Shown one piece after another: positions 12,224 through 23,722 of a stretch of DNA of 64,000 nt. Under the pieces are notes generated by a model. That model did not search any database and had not been told where the DNA came from. It was given only the letters and a program-made list of their open reading frames with translations. The DNA comes from Terriglobia bacterium (GTDB lineage Bacteria > Acidobacteriota > Terriglobia > 2-12-FULL-54-10): positions 1,408,001 to 1,472,000 of the forward strand of contig CAXVYR010000004.1 of the NCBI GenBank assembly GCA_963666975.2. The letters are read 5' to 3'. Position numbers and translations under genes: made by a program. The first letter of the stretch is position 1; each line of letters starts with the position of its first letter.

Positions 12224-13999
12224 ATGATCAGAACTTTATTTTTTGTGATGTCCCTTGTTTGCGGAGTCATCGTTTTCGGAGTGATCCCGCCGGCGGCCGT
12301 AGCGCAGGTGGAAAACTTTGTGCCCGTGACGCGAGAAATGCTGCTCGACCCCAGCCCCGACGACTGGCTAATGTTCAGCCGAACCTACGACGCGCAACGC
12401 TTCAGCCCGCTCGATCAGATCAACCGGGAGAACGTAGGCCAACTGCGCATGGTGTGGGCGCGAGGAATGGCGCCCGGCACTCAGGAAACCATTCCTGTCG
12501 TCTACCGGGGCGTCATCTATACCGTCATCCCCGGATCGGTCGTCCAGGCGCTGGATGCCGTCAACGGCGACTTGATTTGGGAGTACCAGCGGAAGATGCC
12601 CGACGATGTGAGAGATGTTATTGGCATCGGCGCAAGAACCAAAGCTCTAGCCATTTATGAAGACCTCATCCTGTACACCGCTCACGACGGCTATCTGGTT
12701 GGGCTGGACGCCCGCACCGGCGAGGTTCGGTGGGAAACCATGGCCCACGACTACAAGACAAACACCATGCACACCTCCGCCCCCATCGTCTTCGATGGAA
12801 AGGTCCTCGCGGGCCGGTCCTGCCGCGAGTCGCGAACCGGCTGCTTCGTTTCGGCGCACGACGCCCGGACGGGAAAGGAATTGTGGAAGTTTTACACCAC
12901 GGCCGCGCCGGGCGAGCCGGGAGGCGACTCCTGGGGGAAGGTGCCCTTGGAAAAAAGGCTCGCCTCGCCTTGGGGATTGCCGGGTTCCTACGACCCGGTG
13001 CGCAGGCTGGTTTACTGGGGAATCGCCAATCCCACTCCCTACACGCGGCTGAAACGCCATGGCAGCGCCGACGGCACGTCGCGGTCCGCGCCCGCCGATG
13101 CTTACAGCAACTCTACAGTGGCACTCGATATCGACACCGGCAAACTGGCATGGTATTACCAGCATTTGCCGGGCGACGACTGGGACGAGGATCACACCCA
13201 CGAAAGAATTCTCCTCCGAACGGCTCTCAATCCGGACCCCAGCGCGGTCAAGTGGATCAATCCCAGAATCACTCGCGGCGAGCAGCGGGACGTCTCGGTC
13301 TCGGTAGCAGAGGCGGGAGGCCTCTGGGTGCTCGACCGCGCCACGGGTGAATTTCTTTGGGCCATGCCTTTCCCTTACGACGGGCCGGAATTCAATATTT
13401 CCCACATTGACGTCGAAACCGGCAAGACGTACATCAATTGGGACCTGGTCTTCCAGAAGGACGGAGACAGACGCCTCATTTGCTCTTTCAATACCAAAGG
13501 TTACTGGCCCATGACGTACCATCCGGGCAACAACTCCCTGTACGTTCCCTTCCACGACGCCTGTCTGGATATGACCGCGAATATGAGCCGCGAGTCGGGG
13601 TTCGGGCCTCGGTTCGGCCTTCCCCGTCCCGGTTCCGATCCCAATGCGTTCGCCGGGATCGCCAAGATAAACATGGAGACCGGACAACTCCAGCGGATTT
13701 ACTCGGCCCGGATTCCCGGCAACGGAGCCATGCTGGCCACGGCCGGAGACCTGATTTTTTGGGGAGATTTGAATCGAAGGTTCCGGGCGTTTGATGCCGA
13801 TACCGGAAACATCCTTTGGGAAACGATTCTCGGAGGGCCCATTCAGATGAGCACGGTCACTTACGCGGTCAACGGAAAACAGTATGTTGCAGTCATGACG
13901 GGGGAGGGCCAGTCGGCCACGGCGGCGCTTCTCGGCCAGATTCCCGAAATCAATTTTCCGAGAGGCCACAACGCGATTTACGTTTTTGCTTTGCCGTAA
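12224..13999 (+). CDS. Secreted PQQ-dependent dehydrogenase (8-bladed beta-propeller)
   Basis: Signal peptide; DWLMFSRTYDAQRFSPLDQINRENV; repeated A-x-D-x-x-x-G-x-x-x-W Trp-docking motifs; YSNSTVALD, DDWDEDH, TYAVNGKQYVAV; AGGAGG RBS. Confidence 0.92.
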   Translation: MIRTLFFVMSLVCGVIVFGVIPPAAVAQVENFVPVTREMLLDPSPDDWLMFSRTYDAQRFSPLDQINRENVGQLRMVWARGMAPGTQETIPVVYRGVIYTVIPGSVVQALDAVNGDLIWEYQRKMPDDVRDVIGIGARTKALAIYEDLILYTAHDGYLVGLDARTGEVRWETMAHDYKTNTMHTSAPIVFDGKVLAGRSCRESRTGCFVSAHDARTGKELWKFYTTAAPGEPGGDSWGKVPLEKRLASPWGLPGSYDPVRRLVYWGIANPTPYTRLKRHGSADGTSRSAPADAYSNSTVALDIDTGKLAWYYQHLPGDDWDEDHTHERILLRTALNPDPSAVKWINPRITRGEQRDVSVSVAEAGGLWVLDRATGEFLWAMPFPYDGPEFNISHIDVETGKTYINWDLVFQKDGDRRLICSFNTKGYWPMTYHPGNNSLYVPFHDACLDMTANMSRESGFGPRFGLPRPGSDPNAFAGIAKINMETGQLQRIYSARIPGNGAMLATAGDLIFWGDLNRRFRAFDADTGNILWETILGGPIQMSTVTYAVNGKQYVAVMTGEGQSATAALLGQIPEINFPRGHNAIYVFALP

Positions 14000-14151: not shown

Positions 14152-15090
14152 TTATTGTGCGGCTTCTTCGTTAGCTAGCGGGCTGGCCAGCGGGTTGGAG
14201 GTGTCGAGCACCGCGTGGGGCGGCATCACCATGCGCGATTCATCAAACGGCTCGCGGAATGACCAGTCCTTCACATTCCGTGTCCCATAAAGTGACCGGT
14301 CCTGTTTCCAATACAGAGTGGCCTTCGTCGGAACCCTCAGCCCGTCTACTGTAGCGTATTCTTCGTACAGAATGATTCTCGCCGGGTCCGGCTCTCGGCG
14401 GGCGAAAGTAACGATAAATTCAGCCGCCTTCAGGAGGTAGCTTGCGGGATCGATATACAGAATGTAATAGTCGTCCGGCGAGTCGCCCACACCGTGTTCA
14501 AAGGTCATCTTCACAGTGATGTAATCCGTCGGGTCGTCCCAGAGTTTTCCGGTTCCCGGTTCGCCCAGTATCACGCCGGGGTCCGCCGCAACCCAAGGCA
14601 GATTCATAAAGTAGTAGTTCACTCGCGCAGAAAACCGGGCGGAGCGATCCACCTTTGCGTTCTCGGTCCATGCCTTCTCTCCATCCCAGGACATCCGGGA
14701 ACCTTCTTGCAGATAATCGTGGTAGGCGCGGCGTGATCCCTGCTCCACTGTCTCCCGGACAATTCGCCCCGGCCTTTTTGCCGGCATGACGGCGATTTCA
14801 AAACTCACCGTCGGCGCGGACTCCCATTTCTCCAGGCCGCCGTGCGCAGCGATCATTCGTTCGACGACTTCTCGTCCAGGTTCTCTTTCAGGGTTTCTTT
14901 CAGAGCCCGGCGGCGCAGCCTCAGGGCCGGAGGAGGAGCATCCCAATAAGATCAACGGCGCAAGCAAGAGAAACAACACTGGACAGCGCTTGGAGAATGA
15001 GTTGTTCCCGGCACCTGGGGCATTTTCTGATTCTGCCGAATGCCGGGTCCTATGTATGCCACAACGAGTTGCAGGCCATTCCCTGTGCAT
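14152..15090 (-). CDS. Hypothetical lipoprotein (DUF6503-like)
   Basis: LILLGC lipobox; MIAAHGGLEKW, YYFMNLPW and GVGDSPDDYYILY motifs; start uncertain. Confidence 0.65.
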   Translation of the reverse strand: MHREWPATRCGIHRTRHSAESENAPGAGNNSFSKRCPVLFLLLAPLILLGCSSSGPEAAPPGSERNPEREPGREVVERMIAAHGGLEKWESAPTVSFEIAVMPAKRPGRIVRETVEQGSRRAYHDYLQEGSRMSWDGEKAWTENAKVDRSARFSARVNYYFMNLPWVAADPGVILGEPGTGKLWDDPTDYITVKMTFEHGVGDSPDDYYILYIDPASYLLKAAEFIVTFARREPDPARIILYEEYATVDGLRVPTKATLYWKQDRSLYGTRNVKDWSFREPFDESRMVMPPHAVLDTSNPLASPLANEEAAQ

Positions 15091-15272: not shown

Positions 15273-15413
15273 CCCATCCTATCCACACGCAGGGGGCGCC
15301 CGCAGCTGGCTATACGCCGCAACCGGAAAATACCAGCATTTTGCGGCAGATTCAATTTGTGGTAAATCTTGCTTGTTTCCGGGTAATCGAAAGGGAAGGG
15401 GGGACTGCATAAA

Positions 15414-16397
15414 ATGAAAATCTCTTATTTAGCAATAGGTCTTTTCGGAATCCTCCTAGTAATTGCGGCAGGAGCAGGCTGCGGGTCGGAGACGCCAAGG
15501 GGCGGGGGCACTCTCAGCGGCATGATCCAATCTTCCGACGGGGAGCTTTTGGCTGGAATTCCCGTCCGGGCCCGCCTTCCGGGCACGAACGTTGCCGTCA
15601 CGGTATACAGCAATCAGGAGGGCGGGTACGCTTATCGAGATTTGCCGCCCGGGTCCTACACGGTGAGTGTTGCAGCGGCGGGGTTTGAGCCGGTTCAGAT
15701 GGAAGCTGTGGATATTGTCCCGCAAGGGATTGTGCAACTGGAAATTGCTTTGCAGTCCCGGACACCGGTGCTCGATGAGTTGACGACCTCGGAGGTTTTA
15801 TTGGCTCTTCCGGGCGGGGAGGAGCAAAAAGCGGAAGCCGCCCGGTGCTCCAACTGCCATCCCCTGCAGTTCGCCATGCAGCAGAGACGGGACAGGGCGG
15901 GCTGGCTGGCCACAATAGAGAAGATGCGCGGGATCATCCCGTCCGGAGCCATGCAGACTGAGGAAGCAGTTCAGGCGATTCTTCGGCGGACCCGCGATGC
16001 TAACCACAAACTGGCTGACTTTTTCGCCTCGGTTCGGGGGCCCGATTCTCCCGATCTTCCCTTCAAGGTGTCCGGCGCTTTGGAGCGCGCTCGGGAAATG
16101 GATGGCCAATGTTTCCCGGTTCTCGATGGTGAAGCGCTGGCCGGCATGGTGACAACGGAGATTCTGGAAAAGGCTTGGGGCGACGGCGACCCGGAGCGGC
16201 GCTTGGATTCGTTGCCTCTTTGGAACGATCCCGCTGTCCACGTCCACCCCGATAGCCCGTTGGAAGACGCCCTGGATCTGCTCAGCCAGACCCCGGGAGC
16301 GCTGCCGGTCACCAACCGCAGCGACACGAGGCGGTTAATGGGCGTGATTACGCTGGACAGCATCCTGAAGGGCTTGCACGCCTCCCGGCGCTTCTAA
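15414..16397 (+). CDS. Lipoprotein with carboxypeptidase-regulatory-like domain, CxxCH heme motif and C-terminal CBS pair (probable chimera)
   Basis: GAGC lipobox; LPPGSYTVSVAAAGF; CSNCH; CBS-like FPVLDGEALAGMVT and VHPDSPLEDALDLL...LPV...LMGVITLDSIL. Confidence 0.7.
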   Translation: MKISYLAIGLFGILLVIAAGAGCGSETPRGGGTLSGMIQSSDGELLAGIPVRARLPGTNVAVTVYSNQEGGYAYRDLPPGSYTVSVAAAGFEPVQMEAVDIVPQGIVQLEIALQSRTPVLDELTTSEVLLALPGGEEQKAEAARCSNCHPLQFAMQQRRDRAGWLATIEKMRGIIPSGAMQTEEAVQAILRRTRDANHKLADFFASVRGPDSPDLPFKVSGALERAREMDGQCFPVLDGEALAGMVTTEILEKAWGDGDPERRLDSLPLWNDPAVHVHPDSPLEDALDLLSQTPGALPVTNRSDTRRLMGVITLDSILKGLHASRRF

Positions 16398-16473
16398 CCT
16401 GCGCCGCCGAAAGCGACCACAGTTATGAGGTGATGAAAAACCGCAAGTACGCACAATTCGGCCAGTGCCCAGA

Positions 16474-16501
16474 TTGACATCCGCCCGGCAGTCGATACAA
16501 T
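16474..16501 (+). promoter_or_regulatory. Sigma70-type promoter of the cupin-cupin-AAA operon
   Basis: TTGACA-16 nt-TACAAT, about 30 nt upstream of the AGGAG RBS and ATG 16533. Confidence 0.6.
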
Positions 16502-16532
16502 ATGTGCCCCGGCGGAGAATAGGAGAACACTT

Positions 16533-17060
16533 ATGGCAGAGAGAGAACGGGAAAGAGTAAGAGAGCGCGGCCCCCGGGAGGAATCGCCGTACGAGAAGCT
16601 ATACTCGTCCCGGGAAGAATTTCATGAACGGCAGCGAACCGGCAAGGTCGTGGTCCGGCAGAGCGACAGGGAATACGAGCTGAACCGCCAGGGACGCATC
16701 CTGTGGTTCTTGAATCCCATGTCCTACAACGACACTTGCCTCAACGACTGGCTTTTGTTCATTCATGACATCCGGACACACTCCGGGCGGCACCGGCATC
16801 AGGGAGGGCTTGCCTTGTTCGTCATCGAGGGCAAAGGCTACACGGTCGTCGACGGAGTGCGCTACGACTGGGAAGAGGGCGACCTCATTTTGCTGCCGTT
16901 CAAGGAAAACGGAGTCGAGCATCAGCACTTTAACCGCGAGCCGGGCAAGAGTTGCAAGTGGCTGGCATTTATTAACGTTCCGATCTGGGAGTGGGGCGCC
17001 GCTGAAATGACGCAGACCGAGTTGTCCCCCGAGTGGATCGCCCAGCAGGGAACCCAGTAG
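16533..17060 (+). CDS. Cupin domain protein (metal-binding motifs intact)
   Basis: SGRHRHQGG...IEGKGYTVVDGVRYDWEEGDLILLP...VEHQHFN; AGGAG RBS. Confidence 0.85.
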   Translation: MAERERERVRERGPREESPYEKLYSSREEFHERQRTGKVVVRQSDREYELNRQGRILWFLNPMSYNDTCLNDWLLFIHDIRTHSGRHRHQGGLALFVIEGKGYTVVDGVRYDWEEGDLILLPFKENGVEHQHFNREPGKSCKWLAFINVPIWEWGAAEMTQTELSPEWIAQQGTQ

Positions 17061-17105
17061 GGAACCCCGTGGGGAATAGTTAAGCCGCGAAAGGAGAAAA
17101 ACACC

Positions 17106-17597
17106 ATGGCTCAAAAATCGGAATCCAGCCAAAAGAATCTGTTTGAGGATCTGATCCAGTTACGGGACCAGTATCGCCAGCGAGCCCAGGACGCGGTAGT
17201 CGTCATCAAGGCCAAGGATGTGCAGTTTGAGAAAAACCGCCTCGGCCACATCGGCTGGTACCTGCACCCTTCCCTCACCAACACGGCCATTCGCACCATG
17301 ATGACTTACGTGCAGGAGATTCCCCCCGGCGGGCGCAGCGGACGGCTGCACTTCCAGGGCGGGCAGGTCATCTACGTATGGGAAGGAAAAGGCCATACGA
17401 TGCTCGACGGCGTGCGGCATGAGTGGCAGCAGGGCGACTCGATGAACCTGCCGCTCCGCCGCGACGGGATCACGGTGCAACATTTCAACGACGACCCCAG
17501 CGGGCGCGTCCGGCTGATTGCCTCCGAGCCGAACGTTGTCGATCTGTTCGGCATGGACCGGGGAACCCGGTATGAGGTGCTGGAGGAAGCCCCGTGA
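17106..17597 (+). CDS. Cupin domain protein, paralog of the upstream cupin with degenerate His motif
   Basis: SGRLHFQGG...WEGKGHTMLDGVRHEWQQGDSMNLP...TVQHFN; AAGGAG RBS. Confidence 0.85.
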   Translation: MAQKSESSQKNLFEDLIQLRDQYRQRAQDAVVVIKAKDVQFEKNRLGHIGWYLHPSLTNTAIRTMMTYVQEIPPGGRSGRLHFQGGQVIYVWEGKGHTMLDGVRHEWQQGDSMNLPLRRDGITVQHFNDDPSGRVRLIASEPNVVDLFGMDRGTRYEVLEEAP

Positions 17598-17643
17598 GAT
17601 TTTGAGCCGCCGGGGACTTCATAGCGGAGAGGAAATTGAGCGG

Positions 17644-19785
17644 ATGAGCACATTGCAGGTGGACCGCGCAACGGTTGACTCCGGGGTCAATTCCAGGGCC
17701 CTGGCGCAGGTGTCGGCCGAAACGGCCCGCGCCTTGGGAGCGGCGGCCGGCCAGGCGGTGCGGCTGCTGAGCGAGCGCGCCTGCAGCACGGTGGCGCGGC
17801 TGGAAGTAAAGGAGGGCCTTCAGGGAAACGGAATTCATCTTGACCGCCATATCCGCCGCGCATTGAAAGCGCACTTGAATGATCCCGTGCAGGTCGAACC
17901 GGTGGAACTGAATACGCTGTCGATGCTGGAGCTGACTCCGGCCGTGGACGTCTCGACCGCGCACGATCTGATCCCCCATATCCGCGCGACGCTGCAGGAA
18001 TCACAGGTTCCGCTGGCCAAAGGCTCCGTAGTCTATCTGACATTTCCGCACTCCGGCGGGGGCACCACCTACGTGGTGCACAAACTGGATGAAGCGCCGG
18101 GCATGGTCGGCCCCGATACAAAAATCCATCTGCACTTCGCCGACTCCCACACGCCGGAGGGCGCCTTCGAGGTGACCTTTGAAGACATCGGCGGCCTGGA
18201 CCGCGAGATTCGGCTGGTGCGGGAGCTGGTGCAACTGCCGCTGCAATTTCCCCATTCCTACCGCCAGTTGGGAATTCAGGCTCCTCGGGGAATTCTCTTC
18301 CACGGCCCGGCCGGAAGCGGCAAGACTCACCTGGCGCGCGCATTGGCGAACGAGATCAATGCCCGCTTCTACTACATCAACGGTCCGGATATCCTGGGCG
18401 CTTACGCCGGGGAGACCGAGGCCAACCTGAAACGGATGTTTGCCGAGGCCGCCCACCATGCCCCCTCCATCATCTTCATCGACGAGGTGGACGCCATCAC
18501 GCCCCGGCGCGGCCAGACCGGCGCGCACTCCGACACGCGGATGGTGGGCCTGATGCTCACCCTGATGGACGGACTGACGAAGGTGGACAGTGTGGTGGTC
18601 ATCGGCACGACCAATCGCGTGGACTCGGTGGACCCGGCGTTGCGCAGGCCGGGGCGCTTTGACCGCGAGCTGTTCTTCGTCCCGCCCAGCGAACAGGGAC
18701 GCCGCCAGATTCTGGAGATCCATACACGAGAGATGCCGCTCGAAGAGAGCGCCGAGCAATCGCTCGACTCGCTGAGCCAGCGGACGGCGGGCTTCGTCGG
18801 CGCTGATCTGATGGAGCTGTGCCGCGAAGCCGGGCTGAACGCCCTGCGGCGCAACGCCGTCGGCATCCGGGACGTTTTGGGCGCGGTGTATCTGCCGGAC
18901 GACAGAATCACGGTGAACGGCAGCGACTTTGAAAAAGCCCTGGAGTGGATCAAGCCTTCCGCCATGCGGGAGACTCTGCTGAGCGCGCCCTCGGGCAACT
19001 GGAACCAGATAGCGGGCCTCGAACCGGTCAAGGCGCGTCTCAAACGGCTGGTGGGGGAAGCTCTCTCGGAGAACAAGACCGGCCTGGGCATTCTGCTATG
19101 GGGACCATCAGGAACCGGAAAAACCATGCTGGCCAGAGCGCTGGCCCGGGAGTTCTCCGCCAATTTCATCCCGATTGAAGGTCCGGAACTATTCACCCAA
19201 TGGGTGGGAGAGTCGGAAGAAGCGGTACGGCACGTCTTCCGCATCGCGCGCCAGGTTGCTCCGGCCATCGTTTTCTTTGACCATCTCGACGCCATCGCTC
19301 CGGTCCGCGGCAACCAGCCGCAAGGCACCTACACCACCGAGCGAGTGGTGAATCAGCTTCTGGCGGAGATGGACGGGATCGAACCGCGCCGCCGGGTGGT
19401 TGTGCTGGGGGCCACGGACCGCCGCGACCTGATCGATCCTTCGCTGTTGCGGCCCGGAAGGCTGGGCACGCACATCCACGTGCCGTTGCCCGACGCAGCC
19501 GCCAGGAAAGCCTTGGTTCAAATGTGCATGGGAACTGAATCGCCCGATGCGGGTCGCCATGCAAACGAAATCGCCACGAAGGCGGCCCGCAAGACGGATG
19601 GATTCTCCGGCGCTGATATTGTCCAGCTCTGCCATGAGGCTAAGATTTTGGCCGAGGAAGAAGCCGATGCCTCCGGCAGGCGGCAAGTCATCTGGAAGCA
19701 CTTCCAGGCTGCGCTCGCCGCACGAACCGCGCAGATCATCCTTGGCGCCGGAAGTAGGCGCCAAAAGAGACCGGCTGCTAAGTAG
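17644..19785 (+). CDS. Cdc48/p97/VAT-like double AAA+ ATPase
   Basis: N-domain, TFEDIGGL; D1 GPAGSGKT/IIFIDE/DPALRRPGRFDRE; D2 GPSGTGKT/QWVGESEE/IVFFDH/LLRPGRL. Confidence 0.9.
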   Translation: MSTLQVDRATVDSGVNSRALAQVSAETARALGAAAGQAVRLLSERACSTVARLEVKEGLQGNGIHLDRHIRRALKAHLNDPVQVEPVELNTLSMLELTPAVDVSTAHDLIPHIRATLQESQVPLAKGSVVYLTFPHSGGGTTYVVHKLDEAPGMVGPDTKIHLHFADSHTPEGAFEVTFEDIGGLDREIRLVRELVQLPLQFPHSYRQLGIQAPRGILFHGPAGSGKTHLARALANEINARFYYINGPDILGAYAGETEANLKRMFAEAAHHAPSIIFIDEVDAITPRRGQTGAHSDTRMVGLMLTLMDGLTKVDSVVVIGTTNRVDSVDPALRRPGRFDRELFFVPPSEQGRRQILEIHTREMPLEESAEQSLDSLSQRTAGFVGADLMELCREAGLNALRRNAVGIRDVLGAVYLPDDRITVNGSDFEKALEWIKPSAMRETLLSAPSGNWNQIAGLEPVKARLKRLVGEALSENKTGLGILLWGPSGTGKTMLARALAREFSANFIPIEGPELFTQWVGESEEAVRHVFRIARQVAPAIVFFDHLDAIAPVRGNQPQGTYTTERVVNQLLAEMDGIEPRRRVVVLGATDRRDLIDPSLLRPGRLGTHIHVPLPDAAARKALVQMCMGTESPDAGRHANEIATKAARKTDGFSGADIVQLCHEAKILAEEEADASGRRQVIWKHFQAALAARTAQIILGAGSRRQKRPAAK

Positions 19786-19917
19786 CTTCTGTTATTGCAG
19801 TCCAATATCCAGCCCGCCCCCCCCGCGAAATGAAAGAGGCTGGGTCTTCACCTTGCCTCCGCGATGCTTTTGAGCGCATACTTTTCCCAGCTATTTGATC
19901 CAACAGGTGGGCTGAAA

Positions 19918-22611
19918 ATGGAACACGACTCTAAGCCGCGCGAAGAACCCACGCCGGGTAAACTGAAGAACGGCGAGCCGGAGGAAACCAGCGAGTGGCT
20001 GGAATCTCTGGAAGGATTGATGGACACCGCGGGGCCGAAAGGGACTGAGTTCCTGTTGAAACGGGTCCTGGAGCGAGCCCATCATCACGGCATGTCGCTT
20101 CAGTTTGCGGCGAGCACTCCGTACGTCAACACGATTTCGCAAAAACGACAGCCGAAATATCCAGGAGACGGCCGGATCGAGTGGCGCATCCGGAGCCTCA
20201 TCCGATGGAACGCCTTAGCCATGGTGGTGCGGATCAACCGGGAAGAGCCCGGCATCGGCGGCCACATCTCGACCTACGCGTCGCTGGCGACCCTGCTCGA
20301 AGTGGGATTCAACCATTTCTTCCATGCCAAAAAAGAAGGCCACTGCGGAGACATTGTCTATTTCCAGGGACACGCAGCTCCCGGAATCTACGCCCGCGCC
20401 TACCTGGAAGGCCGTCTGGAGCCCGGCCATTTGAAACGCTTCCGCCGGGAACTCGGCGACCGGCCGGGTCTCAGCTCCTATCCGCACCCCTGGCTGATGC
20501 CCGGCTTCTGGGAATTCCCCACCGTCTCGATGGGACTCGGTCCGATCTCTGCCATCTATCAAGCACGGTTCAACCGGTATCTGGAAAACAGAGGTCTGCA
20601 CTCCTGCGGGAACAGAAAAGTCTGCGCCTTCCTCGGCGACGGAGAAACCGACGAGCCGGAGACCCTCGGCGCTTTGACGCTCGCCTCCCGCGAAAAGCTG
20701 GACAACCTGGTTTTCATCATCAACTGCAATCTGCAACGGCTGGACGGCCCGGTGCGCGGCAACGGAAAAATTATCCAGGAACTGGAGGCGGCTTTTCGCG
20801 GCGCCGGCTGGCACGTCATCAAAGTGATCTGGGGGAACGACTGGGACCCGCTGCTGGAAACGGACACCAATGGATTGCTGGTTCAGCGGATGGAGGAGGC
20901 CGTGGACGGCGACTATCAGAACTACGCCGTGCGGTCCGGCGCATGGACGCGGGAACATTTCTTCGGCAAGTATCCCGAACTTCTTCAAATGGTGGAAGGG
21001 CTGAGCGATGACGATCTCAAGAAACTGCGCCGGGGCGGCCACGACCCAGAGAAGGTCTACGCCGCTTACAAAGACGCCTGGGAGCACAAGGGTTCTCCTA
21101 CGGTGATCCTGGCCAAGACTATCAAAGGCTACGGCCTGGGAGAGTCCGGCGAAGGCCGCAACGTCGCCCACCAGCAGAAGAAGCTGAACGAGCAGGAACT
21201 GAGAGATTTCCGCGACCGCTTTCAGATTCCGATTCCGGAGGAGAAGATCAACGATTACCCCTTCTATCGCCCTCCGGAGGAGAGCGAGGAGATTCAATAT
21301 CTGCTGGAGAGGAGAAAAAAGCTGGGAGGATTTCTGCCGGAGCGCAAGGTCCGCGCGGCACCGCTGGAAGCTCCCCCGCTCGAACAGTTCGCCGAGTTTT
21401 TCCAAGGCTCCGGGAACCGCGAGGTCTCGACCACCATGGCCTTTGTGCGGCTGCTTACTCTTCTGCTGAAAAACCCCCGCATCGGCAAGCTGATTGTCCC
21501 CATCGTTCCGGATGAAGCCCGGACCTTTGGAATGGAGTCGCTGTTCCGCCAGTTCGGCATCTACGCCAGCCAGGGGCAGCTTTACGAGCCGGTGGATTCG
21601 GATGTGTTTCTCTACTACAGGGAAGCCAAGGACGGGCAGATTCTGGAAGAAGGGATCACCGAGGCCGGCGCCATTGCATCGTTCATCGCGGCGGGCACCG
21701 CTTACGCCACGCATGGGATCAACACGATTCCCTTTTTCAGCTATTACTCGATGTTCGGCTTTCAACGGATCGGAGATTTGATCTGGGCCTTTGCCGACAT
21801 GCGAGGAAAGGGTTTTCTGATGGGCGGCACGGCCGGCAGGACGACGCTGGCCGGAGAAGGCTTGCAGCACCAGGACGGCCACAGCCACCTGCTGGCCAGC
21901 ACCATTCCCACGCTCGCCTGCTACGATCCTGCCTTCGCCTATGAGACCGTGGTGATCGTCCAGGACGGTATCCGCCGCATGTACCAGGAACAGGAAGACC
22001 TCTTCTATTACATCACGATGTACAACGAAAACTATGCCATGCCCGCCATGCCGGAGGGCGAGGCAGAAGGAATACTGAAGGGGATCTACCGTCTGCGCCG
22101 TGCAGAGAAGGGCAAAATGGCGGTGCAATTGTTCGGCAGCGGAGCCATCCTGCGGGAGGCGCTGCGGGCGCAGAAAATTCTTTCCGAGCAGTTTGACGTG
22201 GCCGCAGACGTCTGGAGCGTGACCAGCTACAACCAACTCCGCCGGGATGCGCTGAACGTGGACCGCTGGAACCGGCTGCATCCCCAAGAACCGCCTCGCC
22301 GCTGTTATCTGGAAACCGCCCTCGGCAAGGCGGAAGGCCCCATCGTCGCCGTCACCGACTACTTGAAGATGCTGCCGGACCAGATCGCGCCCTGGCTGCC
22401 CGGCCGGTTTCTCTCGCTTGGCACGGACGGTTTCGGCAGGAGCGACAACCGTTCCCGGCTGCGGCGCTTCTTTGAGGTCGATGCCGAGTCGATCGCCGTT
22501 GCCGCTCTCTATCAGCTATCGCAGCAAGGAAAGATTCCCGCCGAGAAAGTTTCCCAGGCCATCCAACAGCTGGAGATCGATCCGGAGAAAGCAAACCCGA
22601 TGACGTCCTGA
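19918..22611 (+). CDS. aceE: Pyruvate dehydrogenase E1 component, homodimeric type
   Basis: GGHISTYAS, YFQGHAAPG, GLSSYPHP, GDGETDEPE ThDP motif, NLQRLDGPV, EGITEAG, YSMFGFQR, GEGLQHQDG, LGTDGFGRSD. Confidence 0.96.
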   Translation: MEHDSKPREEPTPGKLKNGEPEETSEWLESLEGLMDTAGPKGTEFLLKRVLERAHHHGMSLQFAASTPYVNTISQKRQPKYPGDGRIEWRIRSLIRWNALAMVVRINREEPGIGGHISTYASLATLLEVGFNHFFHAKKEGHCGDIVYFQGHAAPGIYARAYLEGRLEPGHLKRFRRELGDRPGLSSYPHPWLMPGFWEFPTVSMGLGPISAIYQARFNRYLENRGLHSCGNRKVCAFLGDGETDEPETLGALTLASREKLDNLVFIINCNLQRLDGPVRGNGKIIQELEAAFRGAGWHVIKVIWGNDWDPLLETDTNGLLVQRMEEAVDGDYQNYAVRSGAWTREHFFGKYPELLQMVEGLSDDDLKKLRRGGHDPEKVYAAYKDAWEHKGSPTVILAKTIKGYGLGESGEGRNVAHQQKKLNEQELRDFRDRFQIPIPEEKINDYPFYRPPEESEEIQYLLERRKKLGGFLPERKVRAAPLEAPPLEQFAEFFQGSGNREVSTTMAFVRLLTLLLKNPRIGKLIVPIVPDEARTFGMESLFRQFGIYASQGQLYEPVDSDVFLYYREAKDGQILEEGITEAGAIASFIAAGTAYATHGINTIPFFSYYSMFGFQRIGDLIWAFADMRGKGFLMGGTAGRTTLAGEGLQHQDGHSHLLASTIPTLACYDPAFAYETVVIVQDGIRRMYQEQEDLFYYITMYNENYAMPAMPEGEAEGILKGIYRLRRAEKGKMAVQLFGSGAILREALRAQKILSEQFDVAADVWSVTSYNQLRRDALNVDRWNRLHPQEPPRRCYLETALGKAEGPIVAVTDYLKMLPDQIAPWLPGRFLSLGTDGFGRSDNRSRLRRFFEVDAESIAVAALYQLSQQGKIPAEKVSQAIQQLEIDPEKANPMTS

Positions 22612-22656
22612 CTAGGGCTTCGGAATCCAGGCTTACTTTCGGGCACATCCGCCCAC

Positions 22657-23394
22657 TTACCGTAGCAGGCTTGCCGAACGCGGAAACTTCTGATCCGAGG
22701 AACTGGAAAGGCTCCGCAAGGCGGGTTTCTTCAGGAAACGAACCAGCGGCATCCCTTTTTCAAAACAATCCAGAATGGTGGGCAACAAGCGGGAACTGAG
22801 CGCGAGGCGCGGAGGGAATACTTTGGCAAATAGAAATTGTTTGTACTTCAGGTACTCTGCGGCAGGATGATTGCCGGAAAAACCCTTCGGCATCGATTGC
22901 AACGCTTCGCCTTCCAACTCGCCGAAAGCCGACCGAAAGCGCCCTTCCTGCAGGATAGAAAGAAACCGGCGCGGAGAGGCTGCGATCTCGTCCCGAACGG
23001 CGCGCAAGGTTTTCGGTTCGGGCATGTAGATGCCGCCGCCGATTAAAACCTCTTCCGTTGAAAAGTGGAAATACAGCCCCGGGCCAGCATGCTTGTGCAA
23101 CCCGCGCACGGGAAAAACGGCGGCCACTTGTGTCTTGTACGGAGTCTTGTCCCGGCTGAAGCGCGTGTCCCGATAGATGCGGTAAAGCGAACTCCGGGGG
23201 TCGGCCACCATCTCCGGCGCAAAGCGGCGAAGGGCTTCGCCGACCAGCAAAATCATCTCGACCATCGGCTCCTTGACAGCTTTCTCGTAGATGTCTTTGC
23301 GCGCCTGAAACCAGGGCCGGTTGTTGTGCCGCTTGAGATCGGCGAGAAACTGGAGCGCTGGCGGAGGGAACCCCTTAAATTTTTCCCGCTTCAT
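22657..23394 (-). CDS. DUF2461 (TIGR02453) family protein
   Basis: FLADLKRHNNRPWF, RIYRDTRFSRDKTPYK, GGGIYMP. Confidence 0.88.
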   Translation of the reverse strand: MKREKFKGFPPPALQFLADLKRHNNRPWFQARKDIYEKAVKEPMVEMILLVGEALRRFAPEMVADPRSSLYRIYRDTRFSRDKTPYKTQVAAVFPVRGLHKHAGPGLYFHFSTEEVLIGGGIYMPEPKTLRAVRDEIAASPRRFLSILQEGRFRSAFGELEGEALQSMPKGFSGNHPAAEYLKYKQFLFAKVFPPRLALSSRLLPTILDCFEKGMPLVRFLKKPALRSLSSSSDQKFPRSASLLR

Positions 23395-23722
23395 TATTTC
23401 TGTTTCCCCGTTCTCCCATCATCTTATTATTATTAATTTATCAATTTCTCACTCTGCCTGCTCTTCAATCTGCGGAAGCAAACAGCAGGCAACGCATATA
23501 GGAAACGGCCTGTCTGCCCCATTTAATTCAAATGGTTTTTTGAACGAGGGGGAGACTCTATTAGAGAATAATTCTATAGGAACGCGGTAATAGAAATACC
23601 CTTACAAACACTGGAAAGAATGCCGCGAAAAAATCCCGCAGCAGGCTTTCCTGATCACCCATAGTCACCCATGATGGATGATGGATGATGAATGGTGAAT
23701 GGTGAATACTGAGCCCCAATGA

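Follow-up and report, generated by a model that had tools for sequence, protein, structure and literature searches.

Gene content of the locus

The stretch of DNA analysed here, referred to as the window, is 64,000 nucleotides long and comes from a Terriglobia bacterium of the Acidobacteriota (GenBank assembly GCA_963666975.2, contig CAXVYR010000004.1, positions 1,408,001 to 1,472,000). It carries a trio of co-directional genes downstream of a promoter-like site: two small cupins, cupA and cupB, and a double-ring AAA+ ATPase of the Cdc48 type. The first gene, cupA (16533..17060, + strand), encodes a 175-amino-acid (aa) monocupin that is the putative catalytic subunit (Cupin_2, E 1.1e-9). The second, cupB (17106..17597, +), encodes a 163-aa degenerate paralogue, or pseudo-cupin, that scores 26.8 bits against the Cupin_2 cut-off of 27.2. 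The ATPase gene (17644..19785, +) encodes 713 aa with two PF00004 modules. Gaps of 45 and 46 bp separate cupA from cupB and cupB from the ATPase gene, and a GGAG-type ribosome-binding site precedes the start codon after each gap. The sigma-70-like promoter match (TTGACA-16 nt-TACAAT; 16474..16501, +), a consensus match only, lies 31 bp 5' of the cupA start codon; with 11/12 matches it is the best of 3 sites in 15300-23500 (shuffles: mean 1.6). A first-pass annotation of this DNA had described one promoter, gaps of about 45 bp with good ribosome-binding sites and a Cdc48/p97-type AAA+ protein, all of which we recovered.

We placed the ATPase start at the ATG at 17644 in preference to an upstream TTG at 17518 because the 96%-identical orthologue in locus L001 also begins MSTLQV. 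The trio is present once in the genome of the window (4.23 Mb in 4 contigs, 98.9% complete), whose only other classic AAA match is a 648-aa open frame that is probably FtsH, to judge by its size and by 39% identity. The most closely related loci carry the labels Acidobacteria and Terriglobia.

Recurrence of the trio across bacterial phyla

The arrangement is far beyond chance, and the same genes recur jointly in other phyla. A scan anchored on cupA, with one genome per species, matched 149 stretches, of which 109 were confirmed and the best 80 kept, giving 79 loci; these were searched with the window proteins by tblastn, and their open reading frames (ORFs) were called with a GC3-weighted picker. 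A Cdc48-like ATPase occurs in 17 of these loci, spanning six phyla. The carriers are Acidobacteriota (L001, L002, L027), a member of the Bacillota (L004), an unclassified bacterium (L005), Stellaceae and other Alphaproteobacteria (L006-L012), Phytohabitans of the Actinomycetota (L015, L016), a metagenome-assembled genome labelled Myxococcota or 'delta' (L045) and, within the Chloroflexota, Dehalococcoidia (L046, L047). In 15 of the 17 loci cupB lies directly 5' of the ATPase gene on the same strand; the spacing, measured in 13 loci of which four are metagenomic, is -4 to 146 bp. One exception is L005, where cupB and the ATPase gene are convergent; the other, L002, is taken up below. cupA has no fixed place: most loci have it upstream, Stellaceae have it divergently oriented, and in the metagenomic locus L102 and in Phytohabitans, where the gene order is cupB-ATPase-cupA, it lies downstream. 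The pairing of cupins and ATPase therefore survives rearrangement.

Within the window's own phylum the trio is rare. Among 400 other sampled genomes none carries cupB, which fits transfer of the trio as a unit, and 14 have a Cdc48-like protein, 34-46% identical to that of the window (this count includes an unpublished genome, G049/L101; the statement holds as 13 without it). No cupin lies within 1.5 kb of those 14 genes. The cupin-linked ATPases of other phyla are 46-58% identical to the window's, the exception being the Phytohabitans pair at 38%.

Across 14 loci the pairwise distances of cupB correlate with those of the ATPase (r 0.84, reached in 0/2000 permutations), a value inflated by near-copies. 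A quick IQ-TREE search on 30 ATPases, from which the truncated L047 protein was left out, places a single branch (SH-like approximate likelihood ratio test 100, length 1.04) between 16 linked and 14 unlinked proteins; by this tree, the cupin-linked ATPases are one clade.

An altered second ring marks the cupin-linked ATPases

The ATPase resembles Cdc48, p97 and VAT over its full length, with an N-domain followed by two AAA modules, here seen as two PF00004 and two AAA_lid_3 stretches. CDC48 (TIGR01243) is its top-scoring NCBIfam model, at 593.6 bits and below the cut-off of 802.65, and VAT of Thermoplasma is its best solved relative (5g4g, E 2.6e-159, with the alignment beginning at residue 22; see also 5vc7). 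The N-domain (residues 1-175; 17644..18168, +) is Cdc48/VAT-N-like (CDC48_N 25.3 bits over residues 4-88, cut-off 35.1) and shows a RLDR..R..LK motif conserved in 20 orthologues. Read from its motifs, the D1 ring module (18169..18978, +) is catalytically complete, with Walker A GPAGSGKT, an invariant Walker B pair D280-E281, the sensor GTTN, RRPGR and the aromatic pore loop GAYAGETE. The D2 module (18979..19785, +), read in the same way, keeps Walker A GPSGTGKT and a pore loop QWVGESE of the W-V/W-L type, so that aromatic pore loops are present in both rings, as in VAT. Its Walker B, at nt 19279-19284, reads D546-H547.

This loss of the D2 Walker-B glutamate holds for every cupin-linked ATPase compared: it is replaced in 16/16 (DH in 3, DQ in 12, EQ in 1), whereas 12 of the 14 unlinked ATPases have DE. 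In the window's lineage the D2 sensor-1 residue is also Asp instead of Asn. Exchange of the Walker-B Glu for Gln is the classic laboratory mutation that keeps ATP binding and blocks hydrolysis; D2 would therefore be a structural or holding ring and D1 the motor, such that D1 is probably active and D2 probably binds ATP without hydrolysing it. This predicted hydrolysis-dead D2 ring, missed by the first-pass annotation, appears to be the defining feature of the clade. The remaining two unlinked acidobacterial proteins (L095, L099) read DT in the D2 Walker B and sit on a long branch of their own, and may represent a separate, independent lineage with a dead D2 ring.

The association was seen again in an independent test from the ATPase side. 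Nine linked ATPases were aligned for a scan of metagenome contigs, from which the 80 best loci were kept; the D2 Walker B reads DQ or EQ in seven of them (L102-L108) and DE in the other 73. Cupins of the window's type flank 6 of the 7 DQ/EQ ATPases and 0 of the 73 DE ATPases. The seventh DQ/EQ locus, L105, has a gene for a 316-aa Cupin_7 protein two genes upstream. Synteny elsewhere was the test by which the first-pass annotation had proposed to refute its own idea, and the trio proved syntenic from the cupA anchor and the ATPase anchor alike. Among the 150 best representatives of 50%-identity clusters in a library of 1.84 billion proteins, 20 carry DQ, DH or EQ, 118 carry DE and 12 carry other residues, and the top 12 BLASTP scores all belong to the DQ/DH/EQ group. 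At L107 (3-3369) three cupin-domain ORFs stand in a row directly 5' of a D2-DQ ATPase: two encode about 375 aa, and the third, at 249 aa, is cut by the contig end. A TctC gene and two MmgE/PrpD genes follow.

These results bear on one alternative, that the genes co-travel but work independently, their linkage being a by-product of co-transfer. Such a history would agree with flanking genes that change from locus to locus and with the scarcity of the trio in the window's phylum. We nevertheless regard it as very improbable, since adjacency outlasts rearrangement (the divergent cupA of Stellaceae, the cupB-ATPase-cupA order of Phytohabitans, and a cupin fusion in L045 described below) and the clade-specific ATPase defect coincides with cupin linkage. 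Gene content, cross-phylum synteny, the clade-specific D2 defect, the loss of ligands in cupB and the natural cupin fusions are all directly observed. We are fairly confident that cupA, cupB and the ATPase make up one functional module.

Two features set the ATPase apart from proteasomal relatives. Its C-terminus (...RRQKRPAAK) is not of the HbYX type, and the genome encodes no alpha/beta 20S proteasome, its only PF00227 match being HslV; partnership with a proteasome therefore seems unlikely. Archaeal Cdc48/VAT members have an HbYX terminus and a 20S partner, although this is not universal. Further differences from Cdc48, p97 and VAT are the score below the TIGR01243 cut-off, the clade-wide replacement of the D2 Walker-B Glu and the tie to cupins. 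Eukaryotic NSF, which acts on SNARE complexes via SNAP adaptors, has an active D1 and a D2 that binds nucleotide but is inactive, the same division that the motifs predict for the window ATPase; unlike it, NSF has no cupin link. Cpa, an actinobacterial Cdc48-like protein, is likewise a bacterial double-ring relative of Cdc48 without a classical HbYX terminus. According to the excerpted text of its description, Cpa binds 20S, is encoded in an operon with psd and pssA, and combines a strictly conserved D2 with a D1 that is mildly degenerate (PMC6017811); compared with that account, the window ATPase is reversed (D1 intact, D2 apparently dead), has cupins and aceE as neighbours and has no 20S partner. 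The word 'cupin' does not occur in that paper. In the literature covered (subscription-only papers lay outside its scope) we found no description of cupins linked with Cdc48-type ATPases, and nothing relevant on EutA with a cupin dioxygenase, on a cupin with an AAA+ unfoldase or on gentisate dioxygenase with an AAA ATPase.

A metal-site cupin and its degenerate partner

The cupA protein starts with MAERERERVRERGP. Its HRH (residues 87-89) and HQH (130-132) are intact, as the first-pass annotation had stated; H87, H89, Q90, H130 and H132 are invariant in 24 family sequences. It aligns to both cupin domains of the gentisate dioxygenase 3bu7 (E 4.6e-19), and H87, H89 and H130 align with the Fe-ligand histidines of 3bu7 and of the salicylate dioxygenase 3nst (His119, His121 and His160 in the chain numbering of 3nst). 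In these respects, cupA keeps the three-histidine Fe(II) site of the class III cupin dioxygenases (gentisate 3bu7 and 2d40; salicylate 3nst), together with an equivalent of salicylate dioxygenase His162, aligned with H132. Of the residues that bind the substrate in salicylate dioxygenase (Arg127, His162 and Asp174), only His162 is thus retained: Arg127 aligns with Leu95 and Asp174 with Ala145. In the excerpted text on that enzyme, Arg127 is essential and binds the carboxylate, and Asp174 binds the 5-OH of gentisate (PMC10306065). The substrate of cupA is therefore probably neither gentisate nor salicylate.

Comparison with family models agrees with a distant relationship. Against the NCBIfam models for gentisate 1,2-dioxygenase and MabB (TIGR02272, NF049978; cut-offs 442.1 and 650) cupA scores 24.0 and 32.1 bits, and cupB 20.9 and 25.1. 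A predicted model of cupA (mean predicted local distance difference test (pLDDT) score 81.3, with residues 1-8 below 50) comprises a disordered N-terminal tract (residues 1-18), one long helix (19-36) and then the cupin barrel. Foldseek matches of this model were mostly generic small cupins (TM1459, E 1.9e-6), with 3bu7 at rank 21 and 5-nitrosalicylate 1,2-dioxygenase (8ch4) at rank 35, and did not narrow down the chemistry. The latter enzyme (PMC10306065) is a monocupin similar in size to cupA, and its fold matches.

The first-pass annotation had also pointed to a charged tract at the N-terminus of cupA; it is present, and is a conserved motif (M-x-E-R-x-R-E-R-x-R-E ... Y-E) that also occurs in the L045 fusion. 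The tract may be an oligomerisation arm, a threading handle, or both. A threading handle would suit the idea that the ATPase is a turnover device or off-switch, which dismantles or unfolds the cupin enzyme to stop the pathway or feeds it to a protease. Unfolding and segregation are textbook activities of Cdc48 and VAT, the pore loops are aromatic in both rings, and the disordered, conserved tail of cupA could start threading. This role seems unlikely to us, given that the 20S proteasome and the HbYX-type terminus are both missing, that no protease gene is conserved nearby, and that a dead D2 ring would suit a remodeller more than a processive unfoldase.

The two cupins are paralogues (35-36% identical). 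At the positions of H-R-H and H-Q-H in cupA, cupB reads L-H-F and V-Q-H, leaving L, F and V at the ligand positions. The first-pass annotation had described its His ligands as partly lost; the loss is real, and extends to all three canonical ligand positions. The sequence is nonetheless conserved in its own way, with invariant R20, R24, W51, H54, P55, Q125, H126 and N128 in an alignment of 36 sequences. A search of the ESM Atlas with cupB returned only unnamed or generic cupin clusters.

Natural fusions indicate how the two cupins belong together. In L045 a 369-aa cupA-cupB fusion lies immediately 5' of the ATPase gene, and among longer proteins 35 clusters (350-404 aa) match cupB. The only one of these that was checked, P0122, has a cupA-like half (48% identity, histidines kept) followed by a cupB-like half (51%, degenerate). 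Because such fusions exist, the pair can be read as a split bicupin with the catalytic half first, related by its alignments to gentisate and salicylate dioxygenases. This agrees with two suggestions of the first-pass annotation, a split bicupin and a division into catalytic and structural cupins: the fusions have the cupA-cupB order, cupA matches both domains of 3bu7, and the histidine site is kept in cupA and absent from cupB. Catalytic cupA followed by degenerate cupB also mirrors the two halves of bicupin gentisate dioxygenases. Unlike the class III enzymes, cupA and cupB are split over two genes and linked to an ATPase, and some carriers look anaerobic. A dioxygenase label for the pair would accordingly be provisional; the lack of Arg127 and Asp174 and some anaerobe-type neighbours weigh against it.

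The L045 fusion, folded without an alignment, reached a mean pLDDT of 32.4 and gave no model of a cupA-cupB interface. No fusion of a cupin with the ATPase was found among proteins up to 2000 aa, the longest match being 404 aa. An 872-aa cupB-ATPase "fusion" in L104 was discarded, as it is an upstream extension of the ATPase frame that overlaps cupB in another frame. Elsewhere in the window's genome (G000:C3:551089-551313, locus L192/L082) a 110-aa open frame holds a segment 65-66% identical to the C-terminal 75 residues of cupB. This fragment is probably what is left of a second pair of cupins, comparable to the pairs in L003 and in the genome of L002.

Catabolic neighbours and expansion of the cupin family

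The genes that flank trio and cupin loci vary but are metabolic. They include regulators of the GntR/FCD, IclR and PucR types; acyl- and aryl-coenzyme A (CoA) ligases, enoyl-CoA hydratase, thioesterase and acyl-CoA dehydrogenases; decarboxylases and hydrolases (UbiD, amidohydrolase_2, MmgE/PrpD); oxygenases (Rieske proteins and a BoxB/PaaA-like di-iron protein); and transport components of the NMT1/SsuA and TctABC types. The Bacillota locus L004 has an aldehyde:ferredoxin oxidoreductase and an Fe-alcohol dehydrogenase, the former being a caution against assuming O2 chemistry.

The cupin pair might then not be an oxygenase at all, and instead carry out, alongside UbiD-type decarboxylases, an O2-independent reaction that is coupled to ATP and acts on aromatic acids or the corresponding CoA esters, the ATPase powering catalysis or the assembly of a larger complex. 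UbiD genes flank cupin pairs in 13 loci (L005, L013, L021, L025, L030, L040, L052-L054, L056, L057, L106, L184), and the redox genes of L004 and the Leu and Ala that stand in cupA for Arg127 and Asp174 would also be in keeping with it. Against this, the three-histidine site and the His162 equivalent are kept, Rieske or flavin oxygenases are neighbours in many carriers, and we know of no classic-clade AAA+ protein that drives chemistry directly. We judge an O2-independent reaction of this kind distinctly unlikely.

Five Chloroflexota genomes (G401-G405, holding L020, L029, L019, L036 and L042) show how large the cupin family can become, with 12 to 53 cupA matches each. Together they have 51 standalone cupA-type genes of at least 125 bits (19, 11, 8, 12 and 1 per genome). 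Standalone cupB-type genes number 8, and 19 cupB-type halves lie within open frames of 355-413 aa. Each of the five encodes exactly one D2-DQ ATPase, and their other Cdc48-like paralogues are DE. Fused bicupins are numerous in the family, and tandem arrays occur, with four cupA paralogues in a row in L043.

This expansion matters for a further alternative, in which the cupins are cofactors or adaptors of the unfoldase, comparable to UBX proteins or Ufd1-Npl4 for Cdc48, and select other clients or sense a small molecule or metal, passing such clients on to the ATPase; a substrate-adaptor role was also raised in the first-pass annotation. cupB, perhaps with cupA, would do the selecting. cupB is degenerate yet conserved and is the gene most tightly tied to the ATPase; moreover, cupin folds also serve as protein-interaction modules, and the cupin domain of CENP-C (7x85) is a fold match at rank 19. 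Against this, cupA keeps its four invariant histidines, and the family expands to dozens per genome in catabolic clusters mostly away from the ATPase. The fused bicupins look like ordinary bicupin enzymes, and no other candidate client gene is conserved beside the trio. An adaptor function of the cupins is, in our estimation, improbable.

EutA-type genes beside related cupins

EutA is the reactivating factor of ethanolamine ammonia-lyase. Distant cupin pairs and bicupins, 25-30% identical to cupA and cupB, lie near a EutA-family gene in 14 loci (L058-L066, L068, L070, L074, L075, L079), among them Alicyclobacillus and a Thermoplasmataceae archaeon (L068). The EutA-type gene is immediately 3' of the cupin pair in L063 and L075. 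Four Stellaceae trio loci (L006, L010-L012) also have a EutA-like gene, and in L012, the one of these four annotated in full, it adjoins a bicupin. This looks like a second undescribed module of cupin plus ATPase. Genes for a TctABC transporter, amidohydrolase_2, a CaiB-type CoA-transferase and a citryl-CoA-lyase-like protein are often near the EutA/cupin loci.

Two unrelated families of chaperone-like ATPases beside related cupins are the strongest hint that the ATPase services an enzyme. Rubisco activase, CbbX and EutA are ATPases that restore or establish the activity of one metabolic enzyme. Like these, the window ATPase is encoded beside the one enzyme that it would remodel; the analogy is one of function only, as the window ATPase is of the double-ring Cdc48 type and the fold of its client differs.

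A proposed role for the ATPase

We propose that the ATPase serves these cupin enzymes as a dedicated remodeller or activase, acting on the metal centre or on subunit exchange, a proposal to which we attach about as much belief as doubt. The EutA parallel, the single D2-DQ ATPase per cupin-rich genome, the catabolic neighbours and His-rich tails indirectly suggest a role in activation or metal loading, as the first-pass annotation had supposed. Such tails are predicted in Stellaceae ATPases (L006, L009, L012; 8 His in the first 18 residues) and in L105 (6 in the first 23), and His-rich tails are common in metallochaperones. In the mechanism we envisage, cupA would be the metal-binding catalytic subunit and cupB its catalytically dead paralogue, together forming a split bicupin whose distant relatives are the ring-cleaving dioxygenases of class III (gentisate, salicylate and 5-nitrosalicylate 1,2-dioxygenases). 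Its substrate would probably be an aromatic or other organic acid, or the CoA ester of one. The ATPase hexamer, with D1 as the working motor and D2 binding ATP probably without hydrolysis, would bind the cupin complex and pull on a flexible end, for which the conserved N-terminal tail of cupA is a candidate; cupB may be the docking subunit. Pulling would open the complex or exchange its subunits, so that the metal centre could be loaded or repaired or an inhibitor removed from it, and in this sense the ATPase would be an enzyme activase or reactivase. Where a genome has many cupin paralogues, one ATPase may serve them all.

Several observations weigh against this proposal. That the ATPase binds the cupins and has them as its clients, like the metal, the chemistry and the direction in which it acts, is inferred from genomic association. 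Strict cupB-ATPase adjacency is not required, as in L002 it is cupA that lies directly 5' of the ATPase gene and a 74%-identical cupB is elsewhere in the genome. Pairs of cupA and cupB occur without a flanking ATPase (L003, L013, L024, L025, L042), and the D2-DQ ATPase of the five Chloroflexota genomes has no cupin neighbour within 1.5 kb. The Mantel and clade statistics overstate independence, as kin share history. The charged N-terminal tract of cupA is also kept in paralogues far from any ATPase, and a long N-terminal arm stabilises the tetramer of 5-nitrosalicylate dioxygenase, according to the excerpted text (PMC10306065). In Phytohabitans the D1 pore loop of the ATPases lacks an aromatic residue. 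The predicted His-rich extension hinges on which start codon is chosen, and it is confined to one sub-lineage. A complex prediction of cupA and cupB with the ATPase N-domain as partner scored 0.01 against a mark of 0.32, which speaks neither for nor against binding.

A more specific form of the activase proposal can be put forward tentatively, and we consider it possible but on balance doubtful. A Cdc48-type hexamer driven by D1 only would be an ATP-powered machine for subunit exchange and metal-centre repair that serves the whole split-cupin family; cupB would be the docking adaptor that presents interchangeable cupA paralogues, and EutA-type ATPases would play the same role for sister cupin families.

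Transcription and flanking genes in the window

Traces of the locus were found in Logan contigs. The RNA-seq library X2 has one 229-nt contig that is 100% identical to 17643-17870, and X1, a run only guessed to be RNA, has short contigs from a relative that map to cupA, to cupB and to the 5' portion of the ATPase gene. No contig from X1 or X2 spans two genes of the trio, and all of them may stem from DNA carry-over. A pile-up of contigs at 18463-18498 was rejected as a sign of expression, being a conserved AAA motif from other organisms.

The gene 79 bp 3' of the ATPase gene, aceE (19864-22611), was considered as a member of the system and rejected. Its place after the ATPase gene is shared by the close relatives L001 and L002 only and by no locus in other phyla, and we treat its position next to the trio as lineage-specific. 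In L001 (3819-4277) a SocA/Panacea antitoxin-domain gene and a second small ORF lie between the ATPase gene and aceE. Directly 5' of the trio (15414-16397, +) is a 327-aa ORF of odd architecture, combining an N-terminal hydrophobic segment, CarboxypepD_reg (E 2.7e-14), a CSNCH motif (CxxCH, haem-c-like), a weak match to SorB cytochrome and a C-terminal CBS domain; it is conserved in the close relative L001 but not in the other trio loci. Further upstream are genes for a DUF6503 protein (14152-15090, -) and a 591-aa PQQ-dependent dehydrogenase (12224-13999, +; PF01011, E 3e-55), neither of which is conserved with the trio elsewhere.

Implications for bacterial Cdc48-type proteins

Machines of the Cdc48/p97 type are known from eukaryotes and archaea for their part in protein quality control; very little is understood of the bacterial relatives. 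The cupin-linked proteins are a well-delimited bacterial clade of this type, made testable by a D2 ring that is probably hydrolysis-dead by nature and by a specific, recurrent partner, the split cupin. The field thereby gains a defined candidate client, and in Phytohabitans (for instance P. suffuscus NBRC 105367, locus L015) a cultured carrier, for asking what a bacterial Cdc48 does. Attention is also drawn to a large unstudied cupin family among genes for the catabolism of aromatic and organic acids. If the ATPase is an activase, the idea of an enzyme-dedicated AAA+ helper, of which Rubisco activase is the type, would extend to non-haem metal cupin enzymes; if it exchanges subunits, it would be a bacterial counterpart of the cofactor-guided segregase action of Cdc48, used for the maintenance of catabolic enzymes. 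The recurrence of the trio in distant phyla suggests that this large and unstudied family of enzymes has an undescribed helper machine of its own.

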